The position numbers were made by a program, and so were the translations under genes. Of a stretch of 64,000 nt of DNA, positions 6,286-53,163 are shown one piece after another. The DNA is from Christensenellaceae bacterium (GTDB lineage Bacteria > Bacillota > Clostridia > Christensenellales > Borkfalkiaceae), in contig JAZSKA010000018.1 of the NCBI GenBank assembly GCA_045534605.1, positions 1,175 through 65,174 on the forward strand. Direction: 5' to 3'. The notes beneath the pieces were generated by a model, which was not told the origin of the DNA, searched no databases, and saw only the letters and a program-made list of their open reading frames with translations. Position 1 is the stretch's first letter. The number at the start of each line of letters is the position of its first letter.

Positions 6286-7398
6286 ATGATATATTTCGAC
6301 AACGCCGCAACTAGTGGTTTCAAGCCTAGCGCGTCGGTAAATTCTGCAGTAAACGCCATAAAATACTTAAACGCAAACCCAGGTCGCGGTAGCCATAAAC
6401 TGTCAATTTTAGCCGAAGAGTTCGTCTTTAGAACGCGCGTAAAATTATCGAAAACGTTTAATAACGAACATATAGACAGGGTTATCTTTACTAAAAACTG
6501 CACCGAAAGTTTAAATACGGCAATTTTTAGCCTTGCAAAGCCCAACACTGAAGTAGTTACGACGGTGACGGAACATAACAGCGTTTTAAGACCGCTTTAC
6601 GCTATGCAAAGAAAGTTTGGCGTAAAAATTAAATTTGCAAAGCCAAAACTTGACCGAATTACAAAAGACGATATTCTTCCACTTGTTTCAAAAGACACGT
6701 CGCTTGTCGTTATAAACGCCGTTTCTAACGTAACGGGACAGAAAAACGATTTTGAAGATATAGGAAAACACCTATCTTGTCCGCTAGTTATCGACGGCGC
6801 GCAAGCGTGTGGGCATATTGATATTAATCTTAAAGATATAAACGCAAACTGTTTGGCTGTTGCCGGGCATAAGGGATTGTATTCAACACAAGGAATTGGC
6901 GCGCTTATTTTTGACGGCGAAACGGAAATCGAACCGCTAACTTACGGCGGAAGTGGCGCAGACACTTTTTTAGAAGTTCCATCCTTTTACCCGGAAAAAT
7001 TAGAAGCAGGTACTTTAAACTTACCTGCTATCTGTTCTCTTTTTGACGGCACCGACTACGCATTAGAAAACTTAAGTTTTTCAAACAAGCGATTATTAAA
7101 TAATACCGACGTAATTATTTCCTATCTTAAAAAGATTGGCGCAAAAGTTTATTCAGAAAAAAATCCGTTTGGAATAGTTGCTTTTTCGCTTTCAAAAAGT
7201 TCTTTTGAAGTAAGCGATTTGCTTTCGACAAAATTCGACATTTTCGTTCGCGGTGGATTTCACTGCGCCCCAAAAATGCACGAGTTTTTAAAAACGAAAG
7301 AAAGCGGTCTAGTTCGCGTAAGTTTGGCAATGCAAAACTCCGAAAGCGAAATAGAACGCTTTTTAATGGCAATAACCGAGATAAATACCAGCCTATAA
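6286..7398 (+). CDS. Class-V aminotransferase / cysteine desulfurase (or selenocysteine lyase) family
   Basis: 370 aa with FDNAATS at the N-terminus, a PLP-lysine context AGHKGLY, and an active-site Cys context GGFHCAP. Confidence 0.8.
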   Translation: MIYFDNAATSGFKPSASVNSAVNAIKYLNANPGRGSHKLSILAEEFVFRTRVKLSKTFNNEHIDRVIFTKNCTESLNTAIFSLAKPNTEVVTTVTEHNSVLRPLYAMQRKFGVKIKFAKPKLDRITKDDILPLVSKDTSLVVINAVSNVTGQKNDFEDIGKHLSCPLVIDGAQACGHIDINLKDINANCLAVAGHKGLYSTQGIGALIFDGETEIEPLTYGGSGADTFLEVPSFYPEKLEAGTLNLPAICSLFDGTDYALENLSFSNKRLLNNTDVIISYLKKIGAKVYSEKNPFGIVAFSLSKSSFEVSDLLSTKFDIFVRGGFHCAPKMHEFLKTKESGLVRVSLAMQNSESEIERFLMAITEINTSL

Positions 7399-18447: not shown

Positions 18448-18623
18448 AAAAATAGCGGTAATCGCCTTATAGCGCGATTACCGCTTAAATTTTATATCTT
18501 ATTTTTTATAATAATCATTTTTAACACCGCCCAAAAAGGGCAAAAAAAATGCCCTAATCCTTACGAATAAAGTGCGCACACCGTAAGATTAAAGCCAAAA
18601 AAAACCTTTTTTCTTAGTCTGTA
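18446..18623 (-). ncRNA. Candidate small RNA (orphan promoter, stem-loops, terminator)
   Basis: Lies downstream of the minus-strand promoter at 18629-18657. Contains the stem aatccttacg/cgtaagatt (18556-18590), competing GCCC/GGGC/GCCC pairings (18529-18554), and ends at palindrome C1 followed by a T-run. There is no ORF. Confidence 0.25.
18454..18485. repeat. 32-nt palindromic repeat, copy C1 (T-variant loop)
   Basis: agcggtaatcgc-cttatagc-gcgattaccgct, a 12-bp perfect stem. Confidence 0.9.
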
Positions 18624-18811: not shown

Positions 18812-18843
18812 AGCGGTAATCGCCATATAGCGCGATTACCGCT
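18812..18843. repeat. 32-nt palindromic repeat, copy C2 (A-variant loop)
   Basis: agcggtaatcgc-catatagc-gcgattaccgct, identical to C3. Confidence 0.9.
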
Positions 18844-18895
18844 TCAATTTTAAGCAATTAATGCAAAGCGAGAACACAATTAAATTAATATTCAC

Positions 18896-21383: not shown

Positions 21384-21402
21384 TATTTTTTTAGAAAATT
21401 TT

Positions 21403-21434
21403 AGCGGTAATCGCCATATAGCGCGATTACCGCT
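21403..21434. repeat. 32-nt palindromic repeat, copy C3 (A-variant loop)
   Basis: Identical to C2. Confidence 0.9.
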
Positions 21435-21450
21435 TTAACTTTTTTTAAAA

Positions 21451-21933
21451 TTAGTCGTCGTTTTCGTCTTTGTGGTGGTGATGTCCGCAATTGCAACCTT
21501 CTTCTTTATCGCAGTCGCAATCGTCGTCACAGTCGCAATCGCCATCGCAGTCGCAATCGCCATCGCAGTCGCAGTCTCCATCGCAGTCGCAGTCGCAACT
21601 AGAATGGCAACCGCAGTCACATTCTTCTTCATAGTCGTCTTCTTCGTCCATTTCAGCAACGAACGCTTGGAAAACTTCGTCAAGTAATGCTTCGTCTTGA
21701 ACAGGAGCGAGTTGTTCGTCGCCGTCGTCGCCAACAATTTCGAAAATTACGACTTCTTCGTCGTTAAGACCGTCTATTTCTTGAGCAGGTTGGAAAAATG
21801 CGAACCATCTTTTGTTGTGTTCGATAGTTCCGATATGGTAAAATTTAAACACGTCACCGTTTTCGTTTTTAAGGTCTACAACGGCAATGTCTTCTTCGTT
21901 TTCGTTAATAACTTCTTTGTAATTGTCTGACAT
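21451..21933 (-). CDS. DUF1292 (YrzB-like) protein with Cys/Asp-repeat and His-run C-terminal tail
   Basis: The N-terminal roughly 100 aa match the DUF1292 pattern (VDLKNENGDVFKFYHIGTIEH..RWFAFFQP...VVIFEI). The tail is ECDCGCHSSCDCDCDGDCDCDGDCDCDGDCDCDDDCDCDKEEGCNCGHHHH. Confidence 0.8.
   Translation of the reverse strand: MSDNYKEVINENEEDIAVVDLKNENGDVFKFYHIGTIEHNKRWFAFFQPAQEIDGLNDEEVVIFEIVGDDGDEQLAPVQDEALLDEVFQAFVAEMDEEDDYEEECDCGCHSSCDCDCDGDCDCDGDCDCDGDCDCDDDCDCDKEEGCNCGHHHHKDENDD
21511..21597 (-). repeat. In-frame 18-bp tandem repeat encoding (CDCDGD)n
   Basis: The gcagtcgcaatcgccatc unit is repeated about 4-5 times with minor variants. Confidence 0.8.
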
Positions 21934-26544: not shown

Positions 26545-27594
26545 ATGAGTTCGATAGTTTTAACTGGCGGTGGAACGGCTGGCCACGCAATACCAAACCT
26601 TGCAATTTTACCTTATATAAACGATAGTTTCGACAATATTTGCTATATTGGTCGCGAAATTGGAATTGAACGCAATTTATTAGAAAAATACACCGATTAC
26701 TTTTCAATTCCGACAATCAAGTTTAAGCGAAAAATCTGCGCTGATAATTTATTAATTCCTTTTAAACTTTATAAAGCGGTAAAAAAGAGTAAAGAAATTT
26801 TGAAAAAAATAAAACCTAGCGTTATATTTTCAAAAGGCGGATACGTTTCGCTTCCCGTGTGTATAGCAGGAAAACAATTAAAAATTCCAGTTATTTGTCA
26901 CGAGTCTGACTTAACGCTTGGTCTAGCAAATAAATTAACCGCAAAATTTTCAGATAAAGTGTTAACGTCTTATTTTGAAACGGCGCAAAATTTACAAAAC
27001 GGTATATACACGGGCGCACCAATTCGCGAAGGTCTTTTTTACGCAGACAAAAATTTAGCGTTAAGAAAATTTGGATTTAGCGGTCGAAAAAAAGTAATTT
27101 TAATATTCGGCGGTTCAATCGGAAGTCGGTCAATTAACGATTTAACGCGAAAAGTTTTAGACAGACTTTTAGAAAAATATGCAGTCCTTCACATATGTGG
27201 AAATGGTAATAAGTTCACTTATAACACGGAAAACGAGTATTTTCAGGCAGAATTTATCGACGATATGGCAAGTTGTTATCGCGCATGCGACGTTGCCGTT
27301 TCGCGCGGTGGGGCTAACGCACTTTTCGAACTTATGTCGCTTAAAATTCCGTCGCTTATTATACCCTTAGCAAAATCTTCTAGAAACGACCAAGTTGAAA
27401 ACGCCGAATATTTTAAAAAGCGCGGTATGTGTAACGTTGCGTTCGAAAAAAACTTAAACGCAAGTTTTTATTTTCAAGAAATTGAAAAACTTGTAAAAAA
27501 TCAAGATAAAATTAAAACTCGCATTATCGACAATAAAATTCCAATCGGAAATGAAAAAATTTCTGAGATTTTACTCTCTTATGCAAAAAAATGA
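26545..27594 (+). CDS. murG: Undecaprenyldiphospho-muramoylpentapeptide beta-N-acetylglucosaminyltransferase
   Basis: LTGGGTAGHAIPNLA and a C-terminal GT28 domain. The TGA stop lies inside the first linker of repeat element A1. Confidence 0.9.
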   Translation: MSSIVLTGGGTAGHAIPNLAILPYINDSFDNICYIGREIGIERNLLEKYTDYFSIPTIKFKRKICADNLLIPFKLYKAVKKSKEILKKIKPSVIFSKGGYVSLPVCIAGKQLKIPVICHESDLTLGLANKLTAKFSDKVLTSYFETAQNLQNGIYTGAPIREGLFYADKNLALRKFGFSGRKKVILIFGGSIGSRSINDLTRKVLDRLLEKYAVLHICGNGNKFTYNTENEYFQAEFIDDMASCYRACDVAVSRGGANALFELMSLKIPSLIIPLAKSSRNDQVENAEYFKKRGMCNVAFEKNLNASFYFQEIEKLVKNQDKIKTRIIDNKIPIGNEKISEILLSYAKK

Positions 27595-27854
27595 TTTGCA
27601 ACCTTTGGTTGCATGATTTGCTAACAATGTTAGCGTGATTTGCAATCCTTGATTGCATGATTTGAAAAAACAAGTTTTTTCATTGTGGTCGCGAACGCTA
27701 CGCGTTCCGTTATTAAATATGTTATGTTGGCAATTTTTTTAAAAAATCTGCTCGACTTCAATGCAAATCATTTGATTTGCAAATCATGAAAGTTCACTTT
27801 CAAATCATGAGCGACGACAGTTGCTCAAATCATGAAGGCTTGCCTTCAAATCAT
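27591..27854 (+). repeat. Hairpin-array element, family A, copy 1
   Basis: The left arm is 4 x [ATGATTT or GTGATTT + G..C-closed hairpin] at 22-bp period (27591, 27613, 27635, 27657). The unique core is 27682-27762. The right arm is the palindrome gcaaatca/tgatttgc followed by 3 x [hairpin + AAATCAT], ending at 27854. Confidence 0.9.
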
Positions 27855-40704: not shown

Positions 40705-42009
40705 TTAATCACCACCTTCAACTAATAAATAGTAATTATCGCTCGATAGCGAATTGAAAAAACTTGCGCCGTCACTTTCGATAACTCTTATAGGCTTTTT
40801 AATTTCTTTAGAAAGATCTTCTAGCGTCTTGCCGTCAATAAAGAGTGGCTCGCCGTTTTTAAGCATTACGCTCGATATCAAAAGTTCGTCAAACTCACCT
40901 AAAAAAGAGTTTACTGCATTTAGGATATCTTGCCCCGTCAAAAGTCCAGCACACGTTACGGTTTTTCCGAAAAACAAGTTCTCAGCACCTAAAACGTAAA
41001 CCTTTAAACCGTCGACGAGTTCTTCTGTCTTTTTAGCAAACTTTTCGATAAAATTTTTAGCCGACTTTCCCGTAATTATTAAAAAAGTGCGCCTATAACA
41101 CCGTTTTTCGCAAACTTCGTTAAATTCTTTTTCAAAAAGTCTTATTCCGCCAACCCCGTTTTCAAGTTGACCAAACTCTCCGTAAAAGTCGGCGTTTGGC
41201 ATTTCAATTTTAGCGCGAATATAAAATTCGTCAGCGCAAAACACAAAATTTCTTCCAAGTTTTTTGTTAAAATTATCAATTTGTTCTATAACTTTTTTCG
41301 AATAATCTTCGTCTATATCTTCGATAGGATAAAGCCCGTCTCTATGCTCGGTAATTCCGCACGGAACGACTGCAAGCGACAAAACGCTGTCAAGAGAAGA
41401 TAAATCTTGCATAGTTTTATCTAAAATTTTTCCGTCGTTTAAACCTTTAACTAATACGACTTGGGTATGAATTGAAATTCCGCCGTCGCTAAGTCTTTTT
41501 AGATATTCGTTGATTTTCCACGCAAAGCGATTGTTTAAAAGCGTTTTTCTCGTGTTTTCGTCCGTTGCGTGAACGGATACGTATAAAGGGCTTAAGTTTA
41601 GCCGTATAATTCTTTCGATATCGCTATCCGTTACGTTCGTAAGCGTTACGTAATTTCCGCAAAGAAAACTTTGGCGATAGTCGTCGTCTTTAATATAAAG
41701 CGTATCGCGCATACCTTTTGGCATTTGGTCGATAAAGCAGAAAACGCAATTATTTCGACAAGTTTTAAGATCAAGATTATCACTTATAAATTCAAGTCCT
41801 AAAGTCTCGTCAAAATCTTTTTCAATCTCAAACTCAAATTCTTCGCCGTCGCGCAAAACGGTCATAACGAAAAATTCTTGCGCGTCGTAATATTCATAGT
41901 CTAAAATATCGACTACGCTAAACTCGTCAAACGCGACGATTTTATCTTTAGGGCGCAAGCCAATTTCAAACCCAACCCCGTCTTTTTCTACATTTTTTAT
42001 CTCAAGCAT
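40705..42009 (-). CDS. DUF512 protein (PDZ plus radical-SAM-like plus DUF512), conserved upstream of der in Clostridia
   Basis: CRNNCVFCFIDQMP. I prefer the start at 42009 (MLEIKNVEKDG). The upstream extension of the ORF-track call runs toward the intergenic region that carries repeat element B1. Confidence 0.8.
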   Translation of the reverse strand: MLEIKNVEKDGVGFEIGLRPKDKIVAFDEFSVVDILDYEYYDAQEFFVMTVLRDGEEFEFEIEKDFDETLGLEFISDNLDLKTCRNNCVFCFIDQMPKGMRDTLYIKDDDYRQSFLCGNYVTLTNVTDSDIERIIRLNLSPLYVSVHATDENTRKTLLNNRFAWKINEYLKRLSDGGISIHTQVVLVKGLNDGKILDKTMQDLSSLDSVLSLAVVPCGITEHRDGLYPIEDIDEDYSKKVIEQIDNFNKKLGRNFVFCADEFYIRAKIEMPNADFYGEFGQLENGVGGIRLFEKEFNEVCEKRCYRRTFLIITGKSAKNFIEKFAKKTEELVDGLKVYVLGAENLFFGKTVTCAGLLTGQDILNAVNSFLGEFDELLISSVMLKNGEPLFIDGKTLEDLSKEIKKPIRVIESDGASFFNSLSSDNYYLLVEGGD

Positions 42010-42095
42010 ACCCTTATTATATACAAAATAAGACTTTTTGTAAAGAATAAACGCGCGTATTAGCCGAATCCTATGAGGGATTTCGGCAACTAAAT

Positions 42096-42307
42096 AAATT
42101 TGCAAGCAAATTTGTTATATTCGTCTAACAACGAGTGATATTGCCTAGCGCAGTGATATTTGCCTTACGGCAAATTATAATTTATTTAATATAACTTTGG
42201 CATAGCCAAAATATAACTGCTTGCGCAGTTGGCGTTCGCTACACTCAGTTAAACTGTTTGCTAGCGCAAACAATATAACTTTTAGCCACAAGGCTAAAAA
42301 TATAACT
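42096..42307 (+). repeat. Hairpin-array element, family B, copy 1
   Basis: The left arm has hairpins separated by GTTATATT/GTGATATT (42114, 42135, 42153). The central perfect palindrome is aaattataattt (42172-42183). The right arm has hairpins separated by AATATAAC (42188, 42210, 42272, 42299). Confidence 0.85.
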
Positions 42308-42332: not shown

Positions 42333-42374
42333 AAAAAAACACACTAAATTTCGCTTTTAGTGAACTTTAGTGTG
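42333..42374 (-). terminator. Intrinsic terminator after queH
   Basis: Stem cacactaaa / tttagtgtg with a 7-nt T-run on the minus strand. Confidence 0.7.
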
Positions 42375-46824: not shown

Positions 46825-47403
46825 ATGAATTACGACTTTTTTGCATTTCTATCCCGTATGAAATATATTCGTCGTTGGTGCTTGATGCACTCTATAACCG
46901 ACGAGAACATTATGGAACACACCCAGCAAGTTGCGGTAATTGCTCACGCGCTTGCGGTTATTAAAAATACGTACTACGGTGGCTCGGTAAATATCGAGAA
47001 AACCGTGCTATACGCCCTTTATCACGAAAGTGGCGAAGTAATTACTGGCGATTTACCAACACCTATTAAGTACTTTAACGAAGATATTCGCTCGGCGTAT
47101 AAAGACTTAGAAAAGAACGCTTGCGAAAAACTTTTAAAGATGTTACCCGACGAACTTATCCCAGTTTATAGCGAATTAGTCTTGCCAGACAGCGACACTT
47201 ACGAGTGGAAGATTGTCAAGTACGCCGACAGAATTTCAGCGTACATAAAATGCTTAGAAGAAACGAAAGCAGGAAACAGCGAATTTAAAAAAGCAAAAGT
47301 TTCTATCGAAAAAGATATCCTATCTTTCGACAGTCCTGAAGTTAAATATTTTATGGACAAATTTATCCCAGCCTACAAAAAAACCTTAGACGAATTAGAG
47401 TAG
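46825..47403 (+). CDS. yfbR: HD-domain 5'-deoxynucleotidase YfbR-like
   Basis: FFAFLSRMKYIRRWCLMHS..ENIMEHTQQVAVIAHAL and HESGEVITGDLPTP. Confidence 0.85.
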   Translation: MNYDFFAFLSRMKYIRRWCLMHSITDENIMEHTQQVAVIAHALAVIKNTYYGGSVNIEKTVLYALYHESGEVITGDLPTPIKYFNEDIRSAYKDLEKNACEKLLKMLPDELIPVYSELVLPDSDTYEWKIVKYADRISAYIKCLEETKAGNSEFKKAKVSIEKDILSFDSPEVKYFMDKFIPAYKKTLDELE

Positions 47404-47588
47404 TGTGCCACACTACAACTATATTTGCCTGACGGCAAGTTATATTGCTTTCGCAGTTATATTTTTTATAAAAAGTGTTATTTCCCTTTCGGGAAGTTGG
47501 CAAATATAATATAACTTTAACTTTGTTAAAATATAACTTTTAGATTTACTCTAAAAATATAACTGTTTGCTATGCAAACAATATCACT
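47401..47588 (+). repeat. Hairpin-array element, family B, copy 2
   Basis: It starts at the yfbR-like stop codon. The left arm has linkers CTATATT/GTTATATT/GTTATATT/GTGTTATTT. The right arm has AATATAAC x3 plus AATATCAC. Some hairpins are shared with B1 (tgcctgacggca, tgtttgctatgcaaaca). Confidence 0.85.
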
Positions 47589-47621
47589 TGCTTTTAATTT
47601 ACATTTGGCATTAAAAAAACA

Positions 47622-47653
47622 AGCGGTAATCGCCTTATAGCGCGATTACCGCT
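47622..47653. repeat. 32-nt palindromic repeat, copy C4 (T-variant loop)
   Basis: Identical to C1. Confidence 0.9.
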
Positions 47654-47667
47654 TTAAATTTTCCTTT

Positions 47668-52881: not shown

Positions 52882-53163
52882 ATGATTTGAAGATTTTATC
52901 TTCATGATTTGAGCGACTGTCGTCGCTCGTGATTTGAAAGCCTTGCTTTCATGATTTGCAATTTGAAAACAAATTGCATTATGGTCGGGCAGATTTTTCT
53001 TTGAAAAATTGCCAACTTAACATTTTATATGTTATTCACGGAACGCAAAAGCGTTCGCGACCACAATGAAAAAACTTGTTTTTTCAAATCATGCAACTAA
53101 AAGTTGCAAATCATGCTAACTGTCAAGTTAGCAAATCATGCAAGCGCAAAGCTTGCAAATCAT
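52882..53163 (-). repeat. Hairpin-array element, family A, copy 2 (inverted relative to A1)
   Basis: The architecture matches A1. There are 4 x [ATGATTT/GTGATTT + hairpin] at 52882-52977, a homologous core containing gaacgc-aaaa-gcgttc, and 4 x [hairpin + AAATCAT] at 53068-53163. The last base overlaps the TGA stop of the spoIVFB-like gene. Confidence 0.9.

Follow-up and report, generated by a model that had tools for sequence, protein, structure and literature searches.

The window analysed here is a stretch of 64,000 nucleotides from a Christensenellaceae bacterium (contig JAZSKA010000018.1 of assembly GCA_045534605.1), and our subject is an intergenic element, B1, that lies in it between the terminator of queH (product PF02677) and an operon encoding a DUF512/TIGR03279 radical-SAM protein, Der and PlsY. 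The original prediction had described here an array of short words and hairpins with mirrored arms, a constant word and variable hairpins; sequence and gene context were both confirmed and the grammar is real. B1 is a genuine copy, strongly conserved, of an intergenic element that is repeated in gut Clostridia and that we call family B. The terminator hairpin and T-run downstream of queH stand at 42340-42374 on the minus strand, with a homologous terminator at the same end of other class III members (the classes are defined below) at unrelated loci. Two metagenome contigs encode a homologue of the DUF512 protein with 91% identity; their DNA is ~90-92% identical to the window over 17 kb, and more distant relatives at 63% and 62% have the same gene order. 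The promoter of the DUF512-der-plsY operon (TTTACA-17-TATAAT, 42016-42044, minus strand) is kept in a relative whose site is without the element. The operon's ATG is only 7 nt past the -10 box (42007-42044, minus strand), which suggests a leaderless mRNA, and the same arrangement is found in the 63% relative without the element (L357, 1990-2030).

Read along the plus strand, B1 begins with an outer hairpin, Ha (gccgaatcc-tatga-gggatttcggc, 42063-42087), which marks the G-arm end, has the same place in class III relatives and is identical in the 91% relative. The G arm follows at 42114-42173 on the plus strand, with the words GTTATATT at 42114-42121 and GTGATATT at 42135-42142 and 42153-42160, and hairpins at 42122-42134, 42143-42152 and 42161-42172. 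The centre (42172-42187) holds the perfect palindrome AAATTATAATTT at 42172-42183, as had been predicted, with TATAAT on both strands. The T arm occupies 42188-42306, with the word AATATAAC at 42188, 42210, 42272 and 42299, hairpins at 42196-42210, 42218-42227, 42255-42272 and 42280-42299, and a word-less module at 42228-42254; its units recur in the same order in L267, L270 and other loci. A long-range helix joins AAATAAATTT at 42092-42101, which overlaps a hairpin Hb at 42096-42113, to TAATTTATTT at 42178-42187, the end of the centre. Compared with this anatomy, the predicted extent of 42096-42307 is too short, since the outer hairpin at 42063-42087 belongs to the element and relatives link the terminator hairpin at 42340-42374 to it. 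The listed hairpins are present, although the cgt/acg stem has only 3 bp in B1 (it is cgtc-gtta-gacg in the 91% relative), and the word spacing of 18-27 bp holds except for one of 62 bp, which spans the word-less module. The arms are indeed mirrored but not equivalent, as the G arm and T arm differ in hairpin size, helix and neighbours.

The word AATATAAC occurs 19 times in the window, where 4.9 +/- 2.4 copies are expected and none of 100 shuffles reached 19, and 10 of the 19 copies fall in two arrays of ~200 bp. DNA folding of B1 gave z-scores against shuffles of -5.6 on the plus strand and -6.9 on the minus strand. A second family B copy, B2 (47400-47587, plus strand), lies between convergent genes 5 kb from B1 and is conserved in L355, the 91% relative. 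It consists of an outer hairpin at 47400-47416, a G arm with GTTATATT at 47439 and 47456, a centre ending in GCAAATAT, and a T arm with AATATAAC at 47508, 47530 and 47556 and AATATCAC at 47580. Further copies thus exist, both in the window and as at least 119 mirrored stretches in a genome collection, and the pattern is maintained at the orthologous locus of the close (91%) relative, so that the finding stands on both counts.

A sensitive search of Rfam matched B1 to the Gut-1 motif (RF01706) at 42112-42185 on the plus strand, with 37.3 bits against a gathering cut-off of 50 and an E-value of 1.1e-5 locally or 1.2e-3 over the whole window. The alignment spans the model from 1 to 77 in full, with all three stems and the linkers placed. 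B2 matched at 47416-47486 on the plus strand (31.8 bits, E=1.3e-4), likewise below threshold. When 18 relatives were searched at the curated threshold, L241 (58.0 bits, class III like B1) and L263 (53.4 bits) passed and 16 failed; as relatives of the same architecture pass, B1 is a sub-threshold Gut-1 homologue. The Gut-1 consensus consists of three consecutive short hairpins parted by a conserved heptamer, GUGAAAU or GUGAUAU (RF01706), and Weinberg et al. (2010; PMC2864571) presented it as a likely non-coding RNA from human gut sequences, of unknown function. That 2010 paper was the only one found when the literature was searched for the words and for Gut-1, and the motif has stood in Rfam since 2010 as an orphan 'from human gut only'. 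Two seed members (alignment rows BAAZ01000095.1 and BAAZ01025322.1) carry the words GUUAUAUU/GUGAUAUU, and their flanks hold the centre GGCGAAUAU followed by four copies of the mirrored AAUAUCAC. Since both the seed words and the flanks match, family B is Gut-1 plus much that the model omits; it is already catalogued as the Gut-1 motif, a match that the original prediction missed. The Gut-1 model covers one arm (77 nt) on one strand, whereas the real unit is 200-320 bp long and comprises an outer hairpin or terminator, the G arm, the centre and the T arm. Gut-1 as described comes from gut metagenomes only, and the matches to the B element, among those listed, are likewise from gut or rumen Clostridia. 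B1 is a genuine, if sub-threshold, member of Gut-1, a family that makes up a single arm of a mosaic element which is larger, mirror-symmetric, polymorphic for insertion and strongly constrained.

The plan of this larger unit was drawn from a scan with the mirrored pattern AGTTATATT-N14-44-AATATMACT-N8-19-AATATMACT, with one genome per species. Of the at least 119 stretches returned, all those listed come from metagenome-assembled genomes (MAGs) of gut, rumen or faecal Clostridia, with Christensenellaceae, Acutalibacteraceae, Oscillospiraceae, Faecousia, Ruminococcus and others as carriers. The same pattern gave 9 stretches on 5 contigs of IMG/VR, none of them with palindromic spacers, so the result in the genome collection is specific. 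A search of plasmids for the element returned no match. Exact look-ups of three window proteins also gave no match, so the source genome is not part of the collection searched for them. Looser array patterns were also tried on IMG/VR and were set aside, as they returned tandem repeats of an unrelated kind. Several large viral contigs were among those seen in IMG/VR (L482-L490, 88-344 kb) in which AAAAGTTATATT and AATATAACTTTT are mirrored beside a G-run without palindromic spacers, i.e. the same 8-mer in another grammar. Weak matches of 70-75% to a class I element were found in two scaffolds labelled 'Bacteriophage sp.', unverified and derived from viromes of human faeces, MT835815.1 (5062-5192) and MT835718.1 (39638-39795); these may be phage DNA or bacterial carry-over.

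Arrays, neighbours and orientation were then read from 836 kb of loci (8 kb each, with crude open reading frame (ORF) calls), an array being counted when at least three words were present. Among the matches listed, these held 128 arrays, with GTKATATT always on the left and AATATMAC always on the right and 4+4 as the modal form. The asymmetric centre allowed 114 elements to be oriented, and their common order is outer hairpin (H0), G arm, centre, T arm. H0 is often a bidirectional terminator ending in ...TTTTCA. The G arm has up to four GTKATATT words and GC-rich hairpins of 8-14 nt, the second usually gcttcgc or gctttcgc, while the T arm has up to four AATATMAC words and hairpins of 14-18 nt; across elements the words are spaced by ~20-24 bp and the hairpins measure 7-19 nt overall. 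By its ending the centre falls into three classes, GCGAATAW (57), GCAAATAT (18) and ATTTATTT (36), of which the last, class III, is that of B1. Single loci show signs of local rearrangement: in L283 (1-500 and 2290-2790) the H0 loop is inverted, flip/flop, between two copies with the stem changes compensated, in L302 (~6690-6900) a block of three hairpins has been triplicated, which brings the T arm to 9 words, and in L330 (6800-7500) the whole element is duplicated in tandem. In most class III members, e.g. L254, L256, L267, L269 and L270, the tail of the T-arm terminator contains a perfect DnaA-box TTATCCACA, which B1 does not have.

Hairpins that occupy the same position can be recognised as homologous in different bacterial families, and RNAalifold on 21 elements found double changes in 15 of 40 predicted pairs and almost no broken pairs. 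This positional homology, together with compensatory substitution, implies that the hairpins are inherited and not newly made. It speaks against the common generating mechanism that had been proposed for the two repeat families of the window, as the hairpins are position-specific homologous units (H1-H4, T1-T3) shared across families of Clostridia. A second, long-range structure is formed by the last 10 nt of the centre, which are complementary to the outermost G word and the first bases of H1, so that a 10-bp helix encloses the G arm. At least 9 of the 10 positions match in 92 of 114 elements, whereas two controls reached this in 1 of 114 each, and the helix covaries across the classes (ATATTCGCC/GGCGAATAT, ATATTTGCC/GGCAAATAT, TTATTCGCC/GGCGAATAA and AAATAAATCC/GGATTTATTT). 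B1 has the TT/AA version, AAATAAATTT/TAATTTATTT, with 9 of 10 positions complementary. Both RNAalifold and DNA folding recovered this helix. We also considered a ladder of four-way junctions made by word pairing from arm to arm; the K/M positions agreed with pairing in 132 nested partners and conflicted with it in 164, and as the words of both arms do not covary, such a ladder is excluded. The only word that pairs is the outermost G word, with the centre.

Where the element is present, it is strongly conserved. Against an identity of ~90-92% for the syntenic DNA, B1 differs from the 91% relative by 3 substitutions in ~255 bp and B2 by 3 substitutions and one indel in ~250 bp, and the spacer that flanks the element is visibly more diverged than the element itself. 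Through one of the B1 changes a C-G pair has become T.G when read on the outward strand. The queH-DUF512 spacer measures 390 bp in the window versus 82 bp in the 63% relative and 12 bp in the 62% relative, and in both the operon promoter is kept and the element is absent. In the L283 MAG two ~98% identical copies lie 2.3 kb apart with unrelated flanks, the shared unit being bounded by the outer T word and the H0 T-run. Synteny was rejected as the cause of the recurrence, as the flanking genes differ between loci; a neighbouring 5'-deoxynucleotidase gene recurs in L281, but the element there is inverted and of another class. Empty sites and near-identical copies in unrelated flanks argue that the element has moved, and it is one that was once mobile, is now host-maintained and is strongly constrained where it is sited.

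These observations could also describe a selfish miniature transposable element without a host function, whose words would be subterminal transposase-binding sites. Presence or absence between relatives, the near-identical copies with unrelated flanks and the dispersed positions without synteny would all follow, and the inverted word arrays, with the outer words inverted, recall Tn7- or Mu-type ends. Yet each copy evolves several-fold slower than the flanking genes, covarying hairpins between the sites are foreign to transposase-binding ends, and among the loci examined there was neither a version with cargo between the arms nor a transposase-like neighbour. No target-site duplication was visible at the L283 copies or between the filled and empty queH-DUF512 sites, where the flanks are too diverged to decide. 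We therefore consider a purely selfish element very improbable.

Of the gene pairs that flank the elements, 34 are convergent, 34 tandem and 14 divergent. On the G-arm side the neighbouring gene points toward the element in 61 cases against 29 (p=0.001), and on the T side in 47 against 34. In 17 of 126 arrays the element sits 24-46 bp, the length of H0, downstream of the 3' end of a tRNA or transfer-messenger RNA (tmRNA) gene (L236, L239, L253, L264, L265, L272, L273, L283, L305, L326, L327, L333, L350, L353 and others), on the G side in 16 cases and on the T side in none where the orientation is known. In L264 the element lies within a tRNA cluster between tRNA-Arg and tRNA-His, the latter starting 14 nt after the last T-arm word. 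Orientation showed no link to the direction of replication when compared with GC skew (51:49), and this lack of bias fits a design that works independently of orientation.

One way to read these positions is as an array of terminators or insulators in the orientation of the Rfam model, in which entering transcripts would meet hairpins each followed by the U-rich GUKAUAUU, and the mirrored arms would stop or process read-through from both sides behind a canonical terminator. A lenient scan gave 3 terminator-like hairpins where 0.4 were expected and also 5 against 0.2, so such units are enriched; moreover, the sites at 3' ends, the inward G-side genes, the arrays directly behind a tRNA or tmRNA gene and its terminator, and the inward terminator at the T end of class III, as for queH in B1, are all in its favor, and mirror symmetry and absent orientation bias would follow naturally. 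However, the usual criterion is a GC-rich stem of at least 5 bp with a direct U-tract; the lenient scan flags several units, but the G-arm stems have 2-5 bp, probably too weak for RNA terminators, and the tract that follows them is GUKAUAUU. In that sense, too, the loops are UNC/UNNC (15:175, the wrong way) and the non-canonical pairs mostly A.C, an exact 8-mer across bacterial families exceeds the need of a U-tract, and the 3'-end preference on the T side is not significant. Thus, a terminator array seems decidedly unlikely.

Another transcript-based explanation starts from the AT-rich centre, which could be a bidirectional promoter for divergent small RNAs, with the G arm transcribed outward, antisense to the Rfam model, as far as the H0 terminator, and the T arm the other way; the AAUAUMAC linkers would then bind or titrate an RNA-binding protein, as a CsrB/RsmZ-like sponge. 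In 48 of 75 elements of classes I and II an outward promoter-like site is found on the bottom strand at the junction of T1 and the centre (TTGAAA or TTGACT, a spacer of 16-17 nt and (TG)TATTAT or TATATT), with 5/6 hexamers and often an extended TG, where the background is 1 per 852 nt-strand, and 67 of the 75 have a perfect TATAAT on the top strand facing the other way. The centre of B1, with its TATAAT on both strands, has two divergent promoter-like matches of 10/12 each. In these two classes 29-31 of 64 elements have a bidirectional terminator at the G end and 8-9 of 64 have one at the T end, the unit duplicated in L283 reaches from the outer T word to the H0 T-run, and the tRNA-His gene of L264 follows the T arm without another obvious promoter. 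The loop sense and the excess of G.U over A.C (15:7, see below) agree with outward RNAs as well. Against this, the promoter is seen in 0 of 36 class III elements, the class of B1 itself, about half of the G ends are without a terminator, and a promoter-like match in an AT-rich element of 250 bp is not rare by chance. The predicted starts are downstream of both strands of the covarying long-range helix. The chemistry is also poor for RNA, as only 1.9% of stem pairs are not Watson-Crick, 2-bp GC stems with GAA loops are marginal as RNA, and GNYA tetraloops are as frequent as GNRA. On balance, we regard divergent small RNAs as unlikely.

The stems and loops themselves distinguish the strands. In the GTK sense, 1331 stem pairs are Watson-Crick (98%), 17 are A.C, 8 are G.T and 1 is of another kind, and among 1207 scored pairs of the oriented subset, read outward, 15 are G.T and 7 A.C. 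Along the strand that leads 5'->3' outward from the centre, R..A loops outnumber T..Y loops by 175 to 15, whichever position, arm or class is considered. GAA, AAA, GTA, GCA, GTAA, GATA, ATA, GTTA, GCAA and GAAA are the most frequent loops, nearly always closed by C-G; triloops dominate, and the GNYA tetraloops number 28 and the GNRA 33. For Gut-1 in its modelled orientation, the loop sense (175:15) and the ratio of G.T to A.C (15:7) both favor the opposite strand, and the terminators lie 5' of the motif; family B thus differs from the description of Gut-1 in being multi-copy and insertion-polymorphic and in loop and wobble statistics that favor the opposite strand, possibly as DNA. The short units of the outward strand (TGCGAAGC in 18 cases, TGCGAAAGC in 10, TGCAAAGC in 8 and TGCGTAGC in 4) match the DNA mini-hairpin consensus d(GCGNAGC)/d(GCGNNAGC). 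Such DNA mini-hairpins melt at 76.5 C and resist nucleases, whereas r(GCGAAAGC) melts at 39 C and hairpins with TTC loops behave as ordinary DNA (PMC13037366; PMC3201870); they have been described at primase start sites that single-stranded DNA-binding protein leaves unbound (PMC13037366). Taken together, the stem, loop and mini-hairpin chemistry favors DNA, and in it the outward strand of each arm. Both predicted outward start sites have the long-range helix upstream of them, a position easier to reconcile with DNA (or a read-through RNA) than with outward RNAs.

If the element works as DNA, it could still do so as a duplex, i.e. as a series of sites bound by a dimeric or oligomeric protein, similar to an operator, iterons or a centromere, with symmetric arms about an AT-rich centre. 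An exact 8-mer conserved across families of Clostridia, inverted arms and a spacing of ~20-24 bp are what one would look for in such an array. It would leave unexplained why palindromic spacers are kept by compensatory change and why the loops are biased by strand, and the spacers vary (8-14 nt and 14-18 nt), so that helical phasing is lost; we give this explanation scarcely any credence.

Our preferred reading, which we hold tentatively, is that the B1 family acts as a folded single-stranded DNA signal, similar to the repetitive extragenic palindromic sequences and bacterial interspersed mosaic elements (REP/BIME), that displays the heptamer ATATMAC. The element can be pictured as a mirror-symmetric 'hairpin comb', a name we propose here. 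Its duplex might be opened by the replication fork (on the lagging-strand template), by supercoiling beside heavily transcribed genes, or by entry of single-stranded DNA, and each palindrome, once opened, would snap into a very stable mini-hairpin with a C-G closing pair and a GNA/GNNA loop. The invariant heptamer 5'-ATATMAC-3' would be left as a single-stranded linker every ~20 nt, presumably to be read by a conserved host protein. The favorable sense is predicted to run 5'->3' away from the centre in both arms; since one arm is then in the active sense whichever strand is exposed, the element should work in either orientation. The outcome might be a signal for priming or restart, a site for topoisomerase, or the protection of 3' tails. 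The sequence shows the architecture, its conservation, its presence or absence between relatives, the strand asymmetry of the loops, the scarcity of wobble pairs and the long-range helix, and from it we infer DNA as the active form, a protein that reads the word, and the outcome.

Several points weigh against this reading. Neither a protein partner nor a process that exposes the strand was identified, and no associated enzyme gene recurs next to the arrays in the 8-kb loci, the genes between paired arrays being ordinary. The Rfam curators judged Gut-1 to be an RNA from its covariation (RF01706), and a gene for a small RNA would, taken together, also be described by outward promoter-like sites, terminators at the G end and adjacency to tRNA and tmRNA genes. 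GNA triloops and GNRA loops occur outside DNA as well, and the short unit of B1, gcctagcgca, is not a canonical mini-hairpin. Furthermore, the counts share ancestry and are not independent, because the sample of at least 119 stretches was drawn, among the matches listed, from related MAGs.

Known systems resemble the element in part. REP/BIME share with it that they are multi-copy, extragenic, mosaic and modular, that inverted palindromic units with conserved linkers occupy 3'-end or convergent sites, and that structure is conserved; their single-stranded DNA form is the one recognised by the partner enzyme. A REP is, however, an imperfect palindrome of ~20-40 nt with a GTAG/CTAC end, whereas our element is without that motif and has much shorter, position-dependent hairpins with the linker as the conserved part; REP/BIME are hosted by Proteobacteria and the element by Clostridia. 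The mini-hairpins of G4-type priming signals and N4 hairpin promoters are similar in their C-G closed GNA/GNNA loops, but these are single sites in phage or plasmid origins, while the element forms chromosomal arrays, with 3-4 hairpins per arm and an invariant linker, and a priming role is here putative. Correia, BOX, RUP and ERIC repeats are, like the element, small, non-coding, dispersed, insertion-polymorphic and modular, and repeats of this kind can bear promoters or terminators; the element differs in that no terminal inverted repeat with target duplication was found at the sites compared, in its strong purifying selection, and in the word-plus-hairpin comb, which is not in those families. 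An array of clustered regularly interspaced short palindromic repeats (CRISPR) was rejected, as it needs repeats of at least 23 nt with unique spacers and here the repeat is 8 nt, the 'spacers' are palindromic and the arms mirrored, with a CRISPR direct-repeat match at E=1.5 as the only one. The grammar also does not fit an integron attC site (hairpins of 50-150 nt with RYYYAAC/GTTRRRY cores) or a tandem repeat.

What is new about Gut-1 is that it appears as one arm of a larger unit that is multi-copy, insertion-polymorphic, slow-evolving and common in uncultured gut and rumen Clostridia. The strand asymmetry, the mini-hairpins and the long-range helix give testable hypotheses (DNA versus RNA, which strand, which word) and speak for changing both the extent and the orientation of the Rfam model. 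Were the DNA reading true, this would be a rare conserved chromosomal single-stranded DNA structure outside the ends of mobile elements and origins. A bolder proposal, which we consider doubtful, is that Gut-1 and its relatives (family B and, by its grammar, family A, described below) are not RNA genes and form a new class of chromosomal single-stranded DNA signal, in which a conserved host protein would find an invariant heptamer displayed on mirror-symmetric combs of ultra-stable mini-hairpins. Selection would keep such combs at tens of sites between genes in each genome of gut Clostridia, and they would be what REP/BIME are elsewhere, in a Firmicute form and with another logic.

The only protein gene that recurs as a neighbour is that of a four-helix bundle, 23S_rRNA_IVP (PF05635), at 7 loci, among them L248 (5368-5721), L271 (2425-2793), L305 (2970-3389), L307, L309 and L350. 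It starts ~35-70 bp past the end of the T arm (26 bp in L350) and is transcribed away from the array. The distance to outward-facing neighbour genes did not discriminate between the models.

Family A, as had been predicted, shares the grammar of family B and a related word (RTGATTTG versus GTKATATT versus the GUGAAAU of Rfam). The linker of each family may, as was also proposed, be recognised in a family-specific way. The family A words RTGATTTG and CAAATCAY recur with a period of ~22 bp, and RTGATTT resembles both GTKATAT and GTGAAAT. The window has one copy at 27591-27854, with four RTGATTTG, a core of ~85 bp and five CAAATCAT, and another in opposite orientation at 52882-53163, in which the core is conserved. 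The core is asymmetric; CATTGTGGTCG...CGACCAyAATG brackets it, and two covarying hairpins lie within it. Family A had no match in Rfam, even in a local search, and appears to be uncatalogued; a metagenome scan for it returned unrelated repeats, and among the matches listed only L437 resembles it.

Two further repeats were seen in the window. A hairpin repeat of 34 nt, AAGCGGTAATCGCc[t/a]tataGCGCGATTACCGCTT, is found at 18455-18490, 18815-18848, 21402-21437 and 47621-47654; the scan calls it a bidirectional terminator with a 13-bp stem, the 91% relative L355 has copies too, and it seems to form a separate family of REP-like terminators. Finally, a run of repeats based on 9 nt (GCAGTCGCA and variants) occupies 21509-21590, inside the minus-strand coding ORF at 21451-21933 (DUF1292).

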